Below are positions 230 through 4,582 of a stretch of DNA of 4,631 nt, piece after piece (positions within the stretch are counted from its first letter, which is position 1; every line of letters begins with the position of its first letter). The DNA comes from a virus. Both the position numbers and the translations under genes were made by a program. The notes beneath the pieces were generated by a model that searched no databases, was not told the DNA's origin, and saw only the letters and a program-made list of their open reading frames with translations. The DNA lies in UHGV virus genome UHGV-0038887, one strand, 5' to 3'.

Positions 230-1000
230 TTACCTCCGATAATTGTTAATCAACTGCTGCTGGAACTGTGAAGGGGGGAAGCGTCCCCCCTTGTTTACTT
301 TCTTCGCCGAATTAGCCTCATGGTCACGCTTATAAGAACTAAGCCAAGTATTAAGCCCGCCGATAAGACCGCCAGAAGAAGCATCCATATTGACACGTGC
401 ACTTTCAGCTCCAACAGGTGTATTCAAATAATCAGCCAGAACCTTGTCCTGAACAGTCTGATATTGAGTTCTAATCCGCTGTGCAGAGCTAAGGCCTGTC
501 TGTGCTTCGATATTAGCTCTCCGACTTGCCTCGGTCAAAATCTGCTGATTGGTCAGATTAGACTGTGTTTTCATGTTCTCAACGTTCTGGAGAGCGGCAG
601 CAGCCTGTGCATCCTTAAGACGTACATCAGCCGCACTATTCGCAATCTGGTTACGCTGCAAAGCAATCTGTGACTCAATACCTTCCTTAGCAACCTGTTG
701 CTGTTGACGCTTCGTTAAGGCATCAAATGCAGCAACGGCAGAACTGACGGCACCAGAAAAATCAGCAGGCTGGGCAGCCTGAATACCTGACGAACTGACG
801 GAACCAAGACCACCGGAACCTGTAACGGCCAGAATCGGGTTAAGGCCAGCTTTCCGTAAATCCTGAACACGATACTGGATACCATTTTTGGCCAAATCCA
901 TCGTAATCTTATTGGCACGGTCAGCCGAAGATTTCGCGGAATGGGCACCAAGAAGAGCAGAACCAATAGCGCCAGCAGCGCCAGCAATTGCACTCCACAT
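230..1000 (-). CDS. VP2: Minor capsid / DNA pilot protein VP2
   Basis: 256-aa ORF directly downstream of the capsid gene. Gly/Ala-rich N-terminus (AIAGAAGAIGSALLGA), a Gln-rich central segment, and an RKAGLNP motif typical of gokushovirus VP2 as I recall it. AGGTGA Shine-Dalgarno 4-5 nt before the ATG. Confidence 0.85.
   Translation of the reverse strand: MWSAIAGAAGAIGSALLGAHSAKSSADRANKITMDLAKNGIQYRVQDLRKAGLNPILAVTGSGGLGSVSSSGIQAAQPADFSGAVSSAVAAFDALTKRQQQQVAKEGIESQIALQRNQIANSAADVRLKDAQAAAALQNVENMKTQSNLTNQQILTEASRRANIEAQTGLSSAQRIRTQYQTVQDKVLADYLNTPVGAESARVNMDASSGGLIGGLNTWLSSYKRDHEANSAKKVNKGGRFPPSQFQQQLINNYRR
271..292. repeat. GC-rich inverted repeat (AAGGGGGGA / TCCCCCCTT, 4-nt loop AGCG) inside the 3' end of VP2
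   Basis: Direct reading: 271-279 is the reverse complement of 284-292, giving a 9-bp stem with a G6/C6 core. It encodes the GGRFPPS segment of VP2, about 45 nt upstream of the VP8 start. Function unknown. Confidence 0.5.
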
Positions 1001-1013
1001 AATTTCACCTCAT

Positions 1014-1036
1014 AAAAAAAGGCCTCCGAAGAGGCC
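1014..1036 (-). terminator. Intrinsic-terminator-like hairpin between VP1 and VP2
   Basis: On the minus-strand transcript: GGCCUC-UUCG-GAGGCC (6-bp GC-rich stem, UUCG tetraloop; plus 1021-1036) followed immediately by U7 (plus A7 at 1014-1020). It sits 15 nt after the VP1 stop and just upstream of the VP2 ribosome-binding site. Confidence 0.6.
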
Positions 1037-1050
1037 AAATGACGAAACGA

Positions 1051-2763
1051 TTAAAAATGGTCAATAAGACCTGGTACAGAGTATACAGGCATGGGCCGCA
1101 CACACTTCAAGTCAAAGAACGCATCCATAATGAACTGGGGTTCGTCCTGTACAGCAAGAACGCGTTTCATCGGTGGATTCTCTTCAATGAATTCCTGATT
1201 CAGTGCAGGAAGAGAGTCGAACCGCTGGGCTAAATGCCACACATCGAGAGATTGCGGGTCTGTGGAACGTAATTTACCAGTAATCTGAGATGGTCGGTAG
1301 CGGTACTCTGCATAACGTTCCTGATAACCAAAAACTTCCTCATCCTTCTCGTTACCTTGTGCATAAATCTCCTTGTTAAAAACAGCCTGTTCGCCCAGAT
1401 GGGCCAGTGCAGGCCAGTAAAAATCAAAACGAGTCAGACGGGAAAACATACGCGGAATACCTTGCTGATAGGTCAAGTCGGCACGAACGCTGACAAGACC
1501 AATCACAAAACAATGCTCAACGAAGGAATGAGAGAAACCACGGTTTACACCTCCTGCAACGCCATAAGCGGCTAAGTTACCCTGTGGGGTGGAGTCGGTA
1601 GTAGCGGAGTTCTGGAGAACGGGGTTCACATTAATATCAAACGTACCAGAACCAAGATACTCGGGACGCTGTACACGGGCATCCGGCGAAATAACGCCAA
1701 AATGGGAGCGGATAATCTCAATATAACGAGTACCACCGCGAGCATCACGCTCAAGCAGCCGCTGAAGCTGGAACGCCTGACGAAGCGAATTGATTGTCAG
1801 ATTATCAACAACCTCACCGCCAGACTGCTTCAACTTAACGGGCGGATTTCTTTCATCAAATCCGGCAACCGCATAAGACAACGCACCTTCATCACCAATA
1901 GTAACAGGTGGAAACTTCCAATTACCTACACGATCCGTAGATAAATACATTTGAGAAGCCCCAATGTCATCATATGCAGAATTGGGCTGCGTACCCATAA
2001 CCAATTTATAGGGGTCGGAAAGACCAACAGAACCATTACCAGAAAAACCATAAGTCTTAAAGCCTAAACCACCTGGATAGCTGGGATATTCCAGACTGTA
2101 AGACGGTGGAACGCCAAGAGCAATCTCAACGCCTTCACCTTTCTGAGGCCATGGAAGGGCACTGGTGAAATAATCATGACGTTTTGCACGCTTACGCAAC
2201 GGAAAATTTGCAAGACCTGTTTCCGTCTCATCACCAAGCGGAAGCGGGGCGGAATTAATCAGGTTTTCATCACGATACCATTCGTTATAAATCAGGTTGT
2301 ACGCGCGAAACGGCAGAGCGCTCACACTGATACCTTCAATACCTGTGGGAACGCCAAAATAATCGGCAAGGGAACCTACAGGGAAACCGCCAGAAGGGGC
2401 TTTAATCTGCGGGATAAGATAATCCGTCGAATCACCAGGATTCTTCTGCTCACCGTTGAACTGTTGCCAGTGGTCCCAGACAAGACGATAGGGCACGGAA
2501 AAATACTGGATATCCAGGCGAAGGTTATCCATAAAAGGCACCACTGGCGTGGAGAGACGCGCCAGAATGGACGTCTTCAGATGGAACGTATCACCTGGTA
2601 AAGCCTCATCCAGAAACACGGGAATTAAATAACCTGCATCAAAAGAAGTTTTATAACCGGAACTGCGGTTAAAAACCGAACGCTGAATGTTGGCACTCGG
2701 GATAACTGAAAAATTATGCTGACTTTTTGAATTACTGGGCACTTTGCGACCAAATTTACTCAT
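1051..2763 (-). CDS. VP1: Major capsid protein VP1 (gokushovirus F-like)
   Basis: 570-aa ORF whose length and N-terminal region (…MDNLRLDIQYFSVPYRLVWDHWQQF…) match my recollection of gokushovirus VP1. Strong Shine-Dalgarno (GAGGGGGG) 3 nt before the ATG. Confidence 0.95.
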   Translation of the reverse strand: MSKFGRKVPSNSKSQHNFSVIPSANIQRSVFNRSSGYKTSFDAGYLIPVFLDEALPGDTFHLKTSILARLSTPVVPFMDNLRLDIQYFSVPYRLVWDHWQQFNGEQKNPGDSTDYLIPQIKAPSGGFPVGSLADYFGVPTGIEGISVSALPFRAYNLIYNEWYRDENLINSAPLPLGDETETGLANFPLRKRAKRHDYFTSALPWPQKGEGVEIALGVPPSYSLEYPSYPGGLGFKTYGFSGNGSVGLSDPYKLVMGTQPNSAYDDIGASQMYLSTDRVGNWKFPPVTIGDEGALSYAVAGFDERNPPVKLKQSGGEVVDNLTINSLRQAFQLQRLLERDARGGTRYIEIIRSHFGVISPDARVQRPEYLGSGTFDINVNPVLQNSATTDSTPQGNLAAYGVAGGVNRGFSHSFVEHCFVIGLVSVRADLTYQQGIPRMFSRLTRFDFYWPALAHLGEQAVFNKEIYAQGNEKDEEVFGYQERYAEYRYRPSQITGKLRSTDPQSLDVWHLAQRFDSLPALNQEFIEENPPMKRVLAVQDEPQFIMDAFFDLKCVRPMPVYSVPGLIDHF

Positions 2764-2813: not shown

Positions 2814-2900
2814 TGACACCTTTTTACAGGCTTCGTGGGAGCCGCCTGTAAGTTTCGGTGTCACCTGGCACAGTTACATCAAGTAGGACACTGTGCCAGG
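2814..2900. repeat. Tandem stem-loop module in the VP3-VP1 intergenic region
   Basis: Perfect 11-bp inverted repeat CCTGGCACAGT (2864-2874) / ACTGTGCCAGG (2890-2900) around a 15-nt loop. Immediately adjacent is an interrupted hairpin: TGACACC (2814-2820) pairs with GGTGTCA (2857-2863), and TTACAGG (2824-2830) pairs with CCTGTAA (2845-2851), around a 14-nt loop. No U-run follows on the coding strand. Confidence 0.6.
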
Positions 2901-2908
2901 CTGCAGGG

Positions 2909-3421
2909 TCAGGAGCCGTCTGCAGGTTTCGCGGGTTCAACACCCGCATCTGCTGAATTATTCACATCAGCACCGGAACGCTCCCGCGGGGACGCCGGAG
3001 CAGGACTCGACTCGCGAACGCTGACGCGTTCGGTCGCCGACTCCTCTCCGCCGCTCAATAATCCAAGCTCACGCGCTTTACTCCAGTTCTGCGGGTCACT
3101 CATCCACTCAACGTACTGCTTAACGTTGTTACCAAACATCGAGCGAATCGTGGACGGCAGGCTGTTAAAGTCGTCGTTAACGTCGTCAATTAAAGCCATT
3201 GCGTCCACATAATCAGTAATCGCAGAGGCATCGTAAAATTCACCACGCTGAGCACTGGTAAACACTGTCGTATCTCCCGTTCTTATCGCACGCTCAACAA
3301 TCTTGTTAACATCGCACTCATCGCGGAAATGCTGCTGGGTCATCGTAGGCTCTGTAAACTCGATGCCGGGCGACGGCGGCGGGTTATAACGGGTATGAAA
3401 CTTAGGCTTCGATGTACGCAT
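2909..3421 (-). CDS. VP3: Putative internal scaffolding protein (VP3-like); start uncertain
   Basis: ORF between VP5 and VP1 with an acidic, Ser/Pro-rich low-complexity C-terminus. The track ORF runs to 3511 (200 aa), but that first ATG has no Shine-Dalgarno and would overlap VP5 by 110 nt. The ATG at 3421 (MRTSKPKF…, 170 aa) has GGAG about 10 nt upstream and overlaps the VP5 stop by 20 nt. Assignment is by position and composition, not a recognised motif. Confidence 0.6.
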   Translation of the reverse strand: MRTSKPKFHTRYNPPPSPGIEFTEPTMTQQHFRDECDVNKIVERAIRTGDTTVFTSAQRGEFYDASAITDYVDAMALIDDVNDDFNSLPSTIRSMFGNNVKQYVEWMSDPQNWSKARELGLLSGGEESATERVSVRESSPAPASPRERSGADVNNSADAGVEPAKPADGS

Positions 3422-3671
3422 CTTCCATTTTCTCCAGGAACGCCGGACTGGCATCACAAACATAAACGCGGTCAATATCGACCGGAACCAGCTGCTGGTC
3501 CACAAAGTCATAAGCAGTCACACGGTGCAACGAAAAATCAACACGCTGCATACGATTACAGAACGCGTGCAGATTGCCTTTCGCAATACCATCATGCTGG
3601 GCCATAAACATAAAAACATCAGCATTAATCAGCTTGTCATGAATTACATAAACTGCATCAGAGTGAGCCAT
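3402..3671 (-). CDS. VP5: VP5-like small protein (proposed role in DNA synthesis/packaging, by analogy to phiX174 C)
   Basis: 89-aa ORF immediately downstream of VP4, with its start overlapping the VP4 stop by 14 nt and AGGAAG upstream of the ATG. Size and position match gokushovirus VP5. Confidence 0.7.
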   Translation of the reverse strand: MAHSDAVYVIHDKLINADVFMFMAQHDGIAKGNLHAFCNRMQRVDFSLHRVTAYDFVDQQLVPVDIDRVYVCDASPAFLEKMEDAYIEA

Positions 3672-4521
3672 CTTCTAACTTCCTCATCATTCGCTGGAAT
3701 TTAACCAGATTAAACTTATCCATATCCTGTAAGCGCCACGGGTCCAGTATATTTGCATTCAACTGGCGACACTCTTTATTCTGCTGCAACTTTTCCAAAT
3801 CACAGCCTGATAATAACTTGTCATAATAGCGGGGCGGTTTTATCTGACGACCACCACGACCAATACACGCATCTGAATTAACTATGTCATCGTAATATTC
3901 CATAAAAAAATCATAACCAATACCGGGTCTGTTACTCATGGCAGAAAACTCGGGGATACGGTCTCCGTAATGCTCCGAAGCACGGGAACCGGTGACTTTT
4001 TTAACACAGTATCGCGCCACGTAAGCAGCCGACTCAAAACTAAAAGCAGCAACAACAGACCAGCCAAAAGTCCAACATCTCTCAAGAAGCGAAGACCTAT
4101 ATAAATTAAATCTTCCAGCCTTGTGTAATGTCTTATCCGGAAAATCATAACCAAAAATAATCGCATGATAATGCGGTCGTTCTAATTTAGAACCATATTC
4201 ACCACAACCAAAAAATCGAATTGAAATATCATCAACAGCCAAAGACTTACGCAAACGCTTCATAAAATCAGTGAAATGTTTACGTACAAGAGAACCATTT
4301 TCAGGCAAATTCTCAGGGGAATAAGTCAGAGTGATAAAACAATTGTAATCATGCATGTGGGCTTCATGAACGCAACGGGTAGCCCAGTCACGAGAATGAG
4401 CAAGACGGCAACCGATGCACTGACCGCAGGGCAACTGGATGAATTTAGCGCCACGTGACGGCGTGAAAAAAATCTTTCCCGATGGCATCTGGTACGCGTT
4501 TAAAGGACGAGTACAAGCCAT
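3658..4521 (-). CDS. VP4: Replication initiation protein VP4 (HUH rolling-circle endonuclease)
   Basis: Rolling-circle Rep motifs: motif 1 CFITLTY, motif 2 HYHAIIFG (HUH), motif 3 YVARYCVKK with YxxxY catalytic tyrosines; also an N-terminal CGQCIGC cluster. Preferred start is the ATG at 4521 (MACTRPLNAY…, 287 aa), which has GGAGGTG 6 nt upstream. The track ORF start at 4563 (301 aa) has no Shine-Dalgarno and lies inside the dif XerC arm. Confidence 0.92.
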   Translation of the reverse strand: MACTRPLNAYQMPSGKIFFTPSRGAKFIQLPCGQCIGCRLAHSRDWATRCVHEAHMHDYNCFITLTYSPENLPENGSLVRKHFTDFMKRLRKSLAVDDISIRFFGCGEYGSKLERPHYHAIIFGYDFPDKTLHKAGRFNLYRSSLLERCWTFGWSVVAAFSFESAAYVARYCVKKVTGSRASEHYGDRIPEFSAMSNRPGIGYDFFMEYYDDIVNSDACIGRGGRQIKPPRYYDKLLSGCDLEKLQQNKECRQLNANILDPWRLQDMDKFNLVKFQRMMRKLEDGSL

Positions 4522-4554
4522 GACACACCTCCAGAAATCAAGGAGGCACCTCTT

Positions 4555-4582
4555 AGTGCGCATAATGTATATTATGTTAAAT
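4555..4582 (+). other. dif site (XerC/XerD), right prophage junction (attR-like)
   Basis: AGTGCGCATAA-TGTATA-TTATGTTAAAT matches E. coli dif (GGTGCGCATAATGTATATTATGTTAAAT, from memory) at 27 of 28 positions. The only mismatch is position 1 of the XerC arm. Same orientation as the left site. Confidence 0.85.

Follow-up and report, generated by a model that had tools for sequence, protein, structure and literature searches.

The 76-aa open reading frame embedded in the replication gene VP4 is, in our view, a non-functional by-product of T-rich codon usage and no gene. We put the probability of this reading at roughly 0.9 and infer that any translation of the frame falls short of a functional level. 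A preliminary description of this DNA had already judged the frame most likely a compositional artefact, and this is borne out by a length and a hydrophobicity at chance level, by the lack of a Shine-Dalgarno (SD) sequence and by a start codon that is not conserved. The missing SD sequence and the unconserved start, together with the loss of the hydrophobic segment in related lineages, also speak against the weak alternative raised there, that of a lysis gene resembling E of phiX174. Another embedded frame, in the 3' region of the pilot protein gene VP2 (the VP2-3' ORF), shows the conservation, the codon bias and the SD/start arrangement that the VP4 frame lacks, and its sequence features mark it as an unannotated candidate overprinted gene.

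The window, by which we mean the whole stretch of 4,631 nucleotides analysed, is an E. coli Enterogokushovirus prophage with dif sites at both flanks and about 88% identity to phage EC6098; a contig search for close relatives turned up just one, I. alba. Pfam and PHROG assignments comprise the Rep protein (PF23343), the scaffold (PF09675), the capsid (PF02305) and the pilot protein, with no lysis function among the six recognisable genes, as the preliminary description had noted and in agreement with published work, where these phages have no annotated lysis function (PMC7062461, PMC9239249). The broader statement that a lysis gene is not evident is correct for the annotated genes but incomplete, as the ORF embedded in VP2 (295-402, minus strand) was overlooked. 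Anti-SD duplex energies range from -6.3 to -11.4 kcal/mol at all six real genes (VP1, VP2, VP3, VP4, VP5 and VP8). T occupies 0.44 of the third codon positions genome-wide and 0.46 in VP4, and A only 13-16%. An Rfam search of the whole window matched no family. The hairpin in the VP3-VP1 intergenic region is a far better candidate for the replication origin than VP4 codons 148-180, and recombination mosaicism is present among these prophages.

VP4, the HUH Rep that initiates rolling-circle replication, extends over 3658..4521 on the minus strand, is annotated in RefSeq in E. coli prophages, and matches PF23343 over residues 60-175 (E=1e-20). Relatives share the start of MACTRP at 4521 but not the ATG further upstream, at 4563. 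Besides the Pfam Rep domain, the sequence contains both PHYHAIIF and AAYVARYCVKK, as expected of an HUH Rep. According to the codon table, the HUH motif (H-Y-H, codons 117-119) lies at 4165..4173 and the catalytic Tyr motif Y-V-A-R-Y (codons 167-171) at 4009..4023, both on the minus strand; the latter we take to be the active-site motif by analogy with superfamily I HUH Reps (phiX174 gpA YVAKY). VP2, the DNA pilot protein, is encoded at 230..1000 on the minus strand, and the PHROG pilot-protein families cover its residues 2-179 only. Its C-terminal quarter is hypervariable (pN ~0.4 and pS ~0.47 at alignment columns 196-221); variation near the VP2 C-terminus has been described previously (PMC7062461).

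The 76-aa ORF is present in the ORF listing at 3936..4166 on the minus strand with an ATG start (product MRLFLVMIFRIRHYTRLEDLIYIGLRFLRDVGLLAGLLLLLLVLSRLLTWRDTVLKKSPVPVLRSITETVSPSFLP), in an alternate frame of VP4 as first reported. This is the +1 frame, the offset from the start at 4563 being 397 nt (397 mod 3 = 1), and the ORF spans VP4 from the HUH motif to the catalytic Tyr motif. The initial ATG (ATG1) is composed of the last two bases of His119 and the first base of Ala120, and a further in-frame ATG at codon 7 (4146..4148, minus strand) arises from the Tyr-Asp codons TAT GAT of the conserved VP4 motif FGYDFPDK. The hydrophobic stretch VGLLAGLLLLLLVLSRLL (residues 31-48; 4023..4076, minus strand) is the +1 reading of VP4 F-G-W-S-V-V-A-A-F-S-F-E-S-A-A-Y, and the catalytic Tyr motif overlaps the ...LLTWRDT... 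segment. The Leu run corresponds to the VP4 codons TCT GTT GTT GCT GCT TTT AGT TTT ... GCT GCT shifted by one base, and therefore derives from T-ending Ser, Val, Ala and Phe codons. It had been attributed to frame-shifted GCT and GCA codons; GCT does contribute, but GCA does not. The run is preceded by a charged segment of 30 residues and contains no Pro, and its hydrophobic core comprises only about 14 residues before a Ser-Arg.

Such a composition follows from the codon usage of VP4. A T at VP4 position 3 becomes position 2 of a +1 codon and so gives Leu, Phe, Ile or Val, and the scarcity of A or G after a T at VP4 position 2 leaves few stops in that frame. With third positions that are rich in T and poor in A, long, Leu-rich open +1 frames are therefore the expected background. 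In synonymous-codon shuffles of VP4, the longest +1 open stretch (81 codons) equals the shuffle mean of 81.1 (P=0.40), and the longest +1 ATG ORF (76 codons) is close to the mean of 69.5 (P=0.34). A +1 ATG ORF that reaches 60 aa and holds a 17-mer of equal hydrophobicity has P=0.14 for VP4 alone; over the whole genome one appears in 52% of shuffles, because 44% of third codon positions are T. Four separate +1 stretches with KD17 >=2.4 are open in all members of the clade. Searches with the ORF product among 5.8 billion predicted proteins yielded no homologue, the one match being of low complexity with 12% coverage, and no family was matched in Pfam or PHROG.

As the preliminary description had observed, the ORF has no SD sequence: the best anti-SD energy is 0 kcal/mol both at ATG1 (4166) and at the codon-7 ATG (4148), compared with -6.3 kcal/mol or better at every real gene. 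E. coli can, however, initiate translation without an SD sequence where the context is AU-rich. ATG1 reads ACG in 6 of 13 close relatives, EC6098 among them, and mar4 has a stop at codon 3 of the ORF. The codon-7 ATG is kept in all 13, VP4 codon 125 being an invariant TAT, and all 17 sequences of the Escherichia/Citrobacter subclade have an uninterrupted frame between Met7 and the shared stop. The frame stays open and similar in these close relatives because VP4 hardly varies in its amino acids and identity among the relatives is 89-98%; its openness is a matter of inheritance, not of selection on the ORF.

Both sequence checks that had been proposed at the outset, for synonymous constraint and for conservation of the alternate frame, came out in favour of an artefact. 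Pairwise synonymous diversity of VP4 hardly differs between the overlap (0.220) and the rest of the gene (0.223; column permutation P=0.48), and variable third positions number 25/54 inside versus 82/176 outside (Fisher P=1.0). The ORF product changes about three times faster than VP4 itself: between the window and its relative L086, a hand count from the +1-frame translations gave ~23/76 differing residues versus 11% for VP4. In ERZ27235452 and ERZ27336805 the VP4 core SFESAAY(V/T)ARYC is kept, yet the KD19 of the +1 peptide falls to 0.27 and 0.42, respectively. Two I. alba copies also keep this core, and their +1 peptide has a KD19 of 1.14 in one and reads GLLDFPQSQRFLSNLLRMSLDT in the other. 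The peptide of ERR11525728 is Pro-rich (KD19 1.71), and in the robinz microviruses the frame lacks an ATG and soon runs into a stop. In all, 4-5 sister lineages have lost the hydrophobic segment with unchanged VP4 amino acids. Deep conservation was sought among 77 IMG/VR gokushoviruses with 42-53% VP4 identity and rejected, as most have stops in the frame and those with an open frame are not hydrophobic there.

The VP2-3' ORF, in the +1 frame of the hypervariable VP2 3' region, occupies 295..402 on the minus strand and encodes 35 aa, (M)HVSIWMLLLAVLSAGLILGLVLISVTMRLIRRRK, from a GTG start at 400-402 (with an alternative ATG at 382-384) to a TAA stop at 295-297. The predicted product has one transmembrane segment followed by a basic tail; it is 31 aa long in EC6098 (MMQNLAGFQLLVIIFLVLALVSLVIKVLRKR) and 22-46 aa across relatives. 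The frame is open and contains a transmembrane-grade segment in all 15 relatives and in all 10 sequences fetched prospectively, i.e. in 25/25, which include Salmonella, Citrobacter and I. alba prophages and a robinz microvirus. These fall into about 16 types of the hypervariable region, with KD19 values of 2.48-3.66, and in 5 of the 25 peptides the basic residues are N-terminal, not C-terminal, to the transmembrane segment. The sequence thus evolves fast while its architecture is kept. In a genome-wide scan, the VP2-3' bin was the only +1-frame bin that is hydrophobic in 7/7 lineages. Synonymous shuffles of VP2, as a gauge of codon choice biased towards the product of the ORF, gave P values of 0.0003-0.19 per sequence and, by Fisher's method, combined values of 8e-11 (8 lineages) and 2e-11 (10 new loci), from lineages that are not fully independent. 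T at third positions reaches 0.50-0.77 in this region versus 0.38-0.46 gene-wide.

A GGAG SD sequence (409..412, minus strand), contributed by the VP2 Gly-Ala codons GGA GCT, is located 6 nt upstream of the GTG, as measured from the GGAG core; the duplex energy (GGAGC) is -5.6 kcal/mol, at a spacing of 5 by the count of the script. In 24 of the 25 sequences the transmembrane segment is closely preceded by a start whose SD energy is at least as favourable as -5.2 kcal/mol, compared with a background rate for such combinations of 13% per 15-codon window, and at least 5 distinct SD/start solutions are found among the relatives. Codon choice in VP2 is biased at the positions concerned. In the sequences that use GGAG-N6-GTG, Gly is GGA in 9/9 (GGA usage in VP2 overall is 11%) and Ser is AGT in 9/9 (usage 20%). 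Among all 25 sequences, the stop is made by a Val codon, GTA or GTG, in 23 (combined usage 33%). No match was obtained with the peptide in PHROGs, nor by BLASTP with phiX174 E and K. The ORF is clade-specific. We rejected the notion that it is general to Gokushovirinae, as hydrophobic +1 segments were not clearly enriched at any position along 93 distant VP2 genes (0.06-0.10 observed vs 0.03-0.08 expected per decile).

Two further embedded frames were discarded. The 107-aa ORF with a TTG start, which had been listed as a similar candidate, does exist at 715..1038 on the minus strand (ORF listing), in the +1 frame over the VP2 N-terminus, but is refuted by stops in most relatives (L088, L086, L094, L083, L093, L085 and L089), and the synonymous diversity of VP2 over it is not reduced (pS 0.47). 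A hydrophobic +1 stretch in VP1 (~1626-1754; bin 12 of 19) has low shuffle P values in some lineages, but its starts and stops vary between lineages and it is located in a highly conserved VP1 segment.

Of several other explanations for the VP4 frame, we consider it improbable that this is a young overprinted gene, specific to Escherichia/Citrobacter and translated at a low level from Met7 without an SD sequence. The product would be a membrane protein whose single transmembrane segment is flanked by basic N- and C-termini, and would contribute to lysis or another membrane function. Such a gene would account for the frame being open from Met7 to the common stop in every subclade member, but at 89-98% identity this agreement is inherited. 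Local enrichment of T at third positions makes the +1 peptide more hydrophobic than in shuffles, with a KD17 of 2.48 vs a shuffle mean of 1.34 (post-hoc P=0.02) and P values of 0.005-0.07 for the hydrophobic bin of individual genomes within the subclade; for three well-separated lineages the values are 0.07, 0.90 and 0.12. Lysis gene E of phiX174, the positive control, reached only P=0.025 in the same test, so that a shuffle test on a single genome is unable to exclude a young gene. The synonymous diversity of VP4 has its minimum at codons 148-180 (pS 0.10 vs 0.24 elsewhere, uncorrected P=0.003), coinciding with the hydrophobic segment and basic part of the ORF; this dip is not significant once corrected for the scan (P=0.07-0.16), and constraint over the ORF as a whole is absent. 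The gene reading is further opposed by the lack of an SD sequence, by the shortness of the hydrophobic core, by the loss of the segment in sister lineages with the same VP4 amino acids, and by the expectation that overprinted genes do not arise in the most constrained part of Rep (PMC9865509). Slightly less probable still is a constraint on codons 148-180 at the level of DNA or RNA, not of a +1-frame protein, for example by a replication or packaging element, or through mRNA stability or translation of the region encoding the Rep active site. The low pS without a reduction in pN and the ten successive invariant third positions at codons 171-180 would fit such a constraint, and the replication origin of phiX174 is located within its Rep gene. 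However, the same scan correction applies here, many of these synonymous sites differ in the I. alba and robinz relatives, the intergenic hairpin is the far better origin candidate, and recombination mosaicism can by itself yield local dips in diversity. We favour the reading of the VP4 frame as a by-product of codon usage.

The question of how these phages lyse their host is a separate one. If the missing lysis function is overprinted, as in phiX174, the VP2-3' ORF would more plausibly encode it than the VP4 frame. It may be a real hidden gene whose SD-started, single-pass membrane peptide is the lysis protein (Sgl) of enterobacterial gokushoviruses, a proposal that we make tentatively and at less than even odds. 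The phages could also lack a dedicated lysis gene and be released by a structural or replication protein, for instance through membrane damage by the pilot protein VP2, which has a hydrophobic, Gly-rich segment at its N-terminus, or by host autolysis; this we find possible but rather doubtful. To our knowledge, every small lytic phage studied to date encodes a lysis protein (Sgl systems), which argues against such a release, as does the SD-preceded transmembrane-peptide ORF conserved in 25/25 relatives. EC6098 is viable and lyses cultures, which also weighs against it; on the other side are the absence of an annotated lysis function in Pfam, PHROG and the literature (PMC7062461, PMC9239249) and the capacity of the phages to persist in a carrier state with continuous release of virions (PMC7062461). 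In the literature consulted, our search for a lysis gene or an overprinted gene of gokushoviruses found no description of either.

Gokushovirinae are among the most abundant phages in gut and environmental viromes, and no lysis mechanism is known for them (PMC7062461, PMC3394797, PMC9239249). The VP2-3' ORF provides a concrete lysis hypothesis that is genetically testable in the EC6098/E. coli system. Were it confirmed as a lysis gene, Microviridae would have a second overprinted lysis gene, evolved independently of the first, its peptide could be a "protein antibiotic" of a new kind with a target in the envelope, and the VP2 C-terminus would owe part of its hypervariability to the overprinted gene that this region accommodates. 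The VP4 frame, on the other hand, calls for caution: in microvirus genomes with T-rich third positions long, Leu-rich +1 ORFs belong to the background, and where they overlie conserved Rep motifs they will appear conserved without being genes.

The VP4 frame is reminiscent of lysis gene E of phiX174, located in gene D, in that both are sense-strand +1 ORFs wholly within another Microviridae gene, and in both the Leu-rich segment (LAFLLLLSLLLPSLLIMF in E) stems from T-ending codons of the enclosing gene; in gene D, T at third positions is 0.56 over the transmembrane region of E vs 0.42 for the whole gene. The two are otherwise unlike. There is no sequence similarity (BLASTP 3/11 identities, E=3.1), and E has its own SD sequence, GAGG, 9 nt upstream, whereas the VP4 frame has none. 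The transmembrane domain of E is N-terminal and carries an essential Pro (Pro21), followed by a basic cytoplasmic part, and lysis of the E type is a SlyD-dependent block of MraY; in the VP4 frame the segment occupies residues 31-48 out of 76 and lacks Pro. E is enclosed by an external scaffold gene and the VP4 frame by the catalytic core of Rep, and E is conserved across Bullavirinae, whereas the hydrophobic segment of the VP4 frame is already lost among members of the same genus-level clade. Either embedded ORF could alternatively have a role like that of K of phiX174, also a small, hydrophobic, overprinted Microviridae protein (56 aa, on genes A and C), which is dispensable for lysis; there is no similarity to K, and genomic position and enclosing gene differ.

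A closer parallel to the VP4 frame is a non-coding ORF of phiX174 that overlies a conserved Rep motif and is likewise conserved across relatives (PMC9865509). Both are rich in Leu, Arg and Ser and are carried by the constraint on Rep without selection of their own. That study covers phiX174-like phages, and we found no description of an equivalent enterogokushovirus ORF in the literature consulted. The VP2-3' ORF, for its part a putative lysis gene, resembles Sgl peptides in its architecture, being very short with one transmembrane segment; examples are the 37-aa LysM of phage M and the many Sgls that arose de novo in ssRNA phages. Also like Sgls, it is overprinted on the variable region of a structural gene, evolves fast and is confined to a narrow clade.

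The minus strand carries all genes of the window: VP4, which encodes Rep (3658-4521), VP5 (3402-3671), VP3 (2909-3421), VP1 (1051-2763), VP2 (230-1000) and VP8 (108-227). The longest VP4 ORF starts at ATG 4563 (MRTKRCLLDFWRCV-); its extension (4522-4563, minus strand) is not kept in relatives, and RefSeq together with a conserved GGAGG Shine-Dalgarno (SD) sequence point to ATG 4521 (MACTRP) as the real start. Escherichia phage EC6098 (Enterogokushovirus), for which lysis of E. coli has been demonstrated (PMC7062461), shares 87.7% DNA identity over 84% of the window length, microvirus mar4 shares 86.8%, and prophages in seven complete E. coli genomes, adjoining hipA and the fim operon, share 88-98%. 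The last ~79 bases (beyond 4552) match thousands of E. coli chromosomes, and the prophage is flanked on both sides by dif-like 28-mers, one of phage type (63-90, GGTGCGCATAATGTAAAGTTATGTCAAA) and one nearly identical to E. coli dif (~4555-4582, AGTGCGCATAATGTATATTATGTTAAAT). From these motifs and matches we take the window to be a gokushovirus prophage integrated at dif, of the type that PMC7062461 reports, and the flanking motifs fit the XerCD-mediated integration set out there. According to PMC7062461 and PMC9239249, these phages have no known lysis gene, and overprinted genes were not looked into.

The 76-aa ATG ORF that the preliminary description had placed in an alternate frame of VP4 was recovered at 3936-4166 (minus strand), in the +1 frame. 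It extends from the HUH motif to just past the catalytic Y-V-A-R-Y motif and thus spans the Rep core (Pfam PF23343, residues 60-175). Its first ATG (4166) takes two bases from the end of His119 and one from the start of Ala120; a second in-frame ATG at codon 7 (4148) is kept in all close relatives solely through its position within TAT GAT, the invariant Tyr-Asp codons of VP4. Read in the +1 frame, the VP4 codons TCT GTT GTT GCT GCT TTT AGT TTT ... GCT GCT yield the Leu run. T makes up 44% of third codon positions and A 13%, a bias that enriches the +1 frame in NTN codons (hydrophobic residues) and leaves few stops.

When synonymous codons were permuted within VP4, holding protein and codon usage fixed, the longest +1 open stretch was 81 codons as observed against a shuffle mean of 81 (P=0.40), and the longest +1 ATG ORF 76 against 69.5 (P=0.34). 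Shuffling VP4 produced a +1 ATG ORF of 60 aa or more containing a 17-mer of equal hydrophobicity in 14% of cases; shuffling five genes did so in 52%. Four different +1-frame stretches, each open in all clade members, reach a hydrophobicity over 17 residues of at least 2.4. The VP4 ORF does not exceed chance. Each of the six real genes is preceded by an SD sequence (anti-SD duplex energy -6.3 to -11.4 kcal/mol); at both candidate ATGs the energy is 0, and the SD is as absent as previously remarked. Of 13 close relatives, 6 read ACG in place of the first ATG, EC6098 among them, and in mar4 codon 3 of the frame is a stop.

Synonymous constraint on VP4 over the ORF is likewise absent: synonymous diversity (pS) among 14 distinct VP4 sequences sharing 89-98% identity was 0.220 in the overlap vs 0.223 outside (P=0.48), with 25 of 54 and 82 of 176 third positions variable, respectively. 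The dip at codons 148-180 was tested because it is the lowest of the gene (pS 0.10) and coincides with the hydrophobic segment; the scan statistic gave P=0.07-0.16. The enterobacterial gokushovirus prophages compared are recombination mosaics, which gives rise to local dips of this kind. The decisive comparison was with sister lineages having an unchanged VP4 core (G-x-S-x-V-A-x-F-S-F-E-S-A-A-Y-x-A-R-Y-C), among which the +1 peptide is hydrophobic only in the Escherichia/Citrobacter-like subclade (hydrophobicity over 19 residues, KD19, 2.0-2.7). In ERR11525728 the peptide has three prolines and a KD19 of 1.7, and the values are 1.14 for one Intestinirhabdus alba prophage, 0.42 for ERZ27336805 and 0.27 for ERZ27235452; the second I. 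alba copy reads GLLDFPQSQRFLSNLLRMSLDT, and robinz microviruses have the stretch without the ATG and with a stop directly after it. Stops interrupt the frame in most of 77 more distant gokushoviruses, and a search of 5.8 billion predicted proteins found no homologue of the product. The same phenomenon is described for phiX174, where a non-coding ORF owes its conservation to the Rep motif that it overlaps (PMC9865509).

In a relative on a Logan SRR23636743 contig (1-260), a deletion joins the Rep frame after PHYHAII to the +1-frame Leu run (…HYHAIIVGLLLLLLVLSQLH…) and truncates Rep to 162 aa; this is probably a defective prophage. The 107-aa TTG ORF over the VP2 N-terminus (715-1038, minus strand) was rejected as a gene, with stops in 7 of 10 VP2 variants. 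Within a conserved VP1 segment, the +1 frame holds a 42-aa TTG ORF (~1626-1754, minus strand; bin 12 of the genome-wide scan) whose hydrophobic stretch surpasses synonymous shuffles in several lineages; where it starts and stops is inconsistent among lineages, so it is probably another by-product of composition.

A different ORF was spotted in the list of +1-frame stretches open in all relatives, inside VP2 (295-402, minus strand). This hypervariable 3' part of VP2 diverges strongly among lineages and evolves almost neutrally (non-synonymous diversity, pN, ~0.4; pS ~0.47). Every lineage nevertheless has a +1 ORF with a shared end, within the conserved VP2 motif S-A-K-x-V. It spans 22-46 codons (75-140 nt), encodes a transmembrane segment and is present in 25 of 25 relatives; the product has ~20 hydrophobic residues followed in most by a basic tail (window MHVSIWMLLLAVLSAGLILGLVLISVTMRLIRRRK, EC6098 MMQNLAGFQLLVIIFLVLALVSLVIKVLRKR, I. 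alba MQVAQLLVLSSSLLVGLMMLLVFLVVRAIRRRK), and in the 5 of 25 peptides missing the tail the basic residues are N-terminal. Synonymous shuffles of VP2 gave P=0.001-0.04 in 14 of 15 sequences and 0.13 in the remaining one, and the Fisher combination over 8 lineages (8e-11) is overstated because the lineages share ancestry. In a genome-wide scan (47 bins, 7 lineages) this bin is unique in carrying a +1 segment of transmembrane grade in all 7 lineages (P<=0.026 per lineage); the VP4 bin fails in I. alba. A prospective test used ten more VP2 variants picked by protein diversity alone, Salmonella and Citrobacter prophages included, and the ORF was present in all ten (KD19 2.48-3.37; Fisher P=2e-11, overstated by kinship). 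The feature is absent in 93 distant gokushoviruses.

In 24 of 25 sequences a start preceded by an SD of -5.2 kcal/mol or stronger stands just ahead of the transmembrane segment, against a background of 13% per 15-codon window, and at least five different SD/start solutions are in use among relatives. One, GGAG-N6-GTG, is composed of the VP2 codons Gly-Ala-Glu-Ser, where Gly is GGA in 9/9 (usage 11%) and Ser is AGT in 9/9 (usage 20%), while adjoining synonymous sites vary freely; a Salmonella phage has GGC...AGC there and another SD-preceded ATG downstream. GTA or GTG, Val codons with a combined usage of 33%, supply the stop in 23 of 25 sequences. These codon choices show synonymous constraint at the SD, start and stop codons.

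We regard the VP2 ORF as a well-supported candidate for an unannotated overprinted gene, never called because the original annotation accepted no gene shorter than 110 bp and no overlap longer than 50 bp (PMC7062461). That it is an expressed gene seems somewhat more likely than not; that it is the lysis gene seems less likely than not. Similarity to phiX174 E, K or any PHROG was sought and not found. Instead of lysis, the ORF could serve superinfection immunity, play an accessory part as K does, or represent a frameshifted isoform of VP2. The candidate makes the question of gokushovirus lysis directly testable.

Several other elements were observed. Between VP3 and VP1 (2855-2891) lies a perfect 11-bp hairpin (CCTGGCACAGT / ACTGTGCCAGG; DNA fold -13.5 kcal/mol, z=-3.3), in a region ~95% identical in very distant gokushoviruses. 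Its loop 13-mer (~2866-2878, minus strand; coding-strand loop sequence GTCCTACTTGATGTA) occurs as TACTTGATGTAAC in 58 of 184 loci compared, on the coding strand wherever a Rep match gives the orientation. ACTTGAT resembles the phiX174 origin nick site CAACTTG/ATATTAATAAC, which makes the element the probable nick site of Rep and origin of the viral strand. In the GC-rich C-terminal part of VP3 (~2930-3060, minus strand) pS falls to 0.04-0.11 vs 0.3-0.4 elsewhere in the gene, and pN stays at ~0.1. Its hairpin CGAACGC-gtca-GCGTTCG is replaced in relatives by CGAAC-cgaag-GTTCG, so the indel keeps the pairing; this suggests a structured DNA/RNA element (complementary-strand origin or regulatory element) or another overlapping feature. 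I. alba NZ_WMJZ01000007.1 (1-8849) contains a tandem pair of different gokushovirus prophages, the first with VP1 at 1252-2934 and VP2 at 2858-3760, the second with VP4 (3920-4852), VP3, VP1 (5630-7282) and VP2 (7283-8092), plus a third, partial Rep at the left end.

The VP4 and TTG ORFs are ordinary products of codon composition, and the suspicion of an artifact that the preliminary description voiced for the former is borne out by its chance-level length and hydrophobicity, missing SD, unconstrained synonymous sites and loss of hydrophobicity in relatives. A young gene specific to the subclade that has the hydrophobic peptide is the alternative, and we consider it very improbable. The VP4 ORF differs from phiX174 E in homology, SD, position of the transmembrane segment and conservation, and we therefore judge it a by-product (probability roughly 0.88). 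The loose likeness to E drawn earlier fails on these four points and holds for the mode of origin: in the phiX174 D gene, T at third codon positions reaches 0.56 over the E transmembrane region vs 0.42 gene-wide, and E itself gives P=0.025 in the same shuffle test, so that the resemblance is real as regards how such sequences originate.
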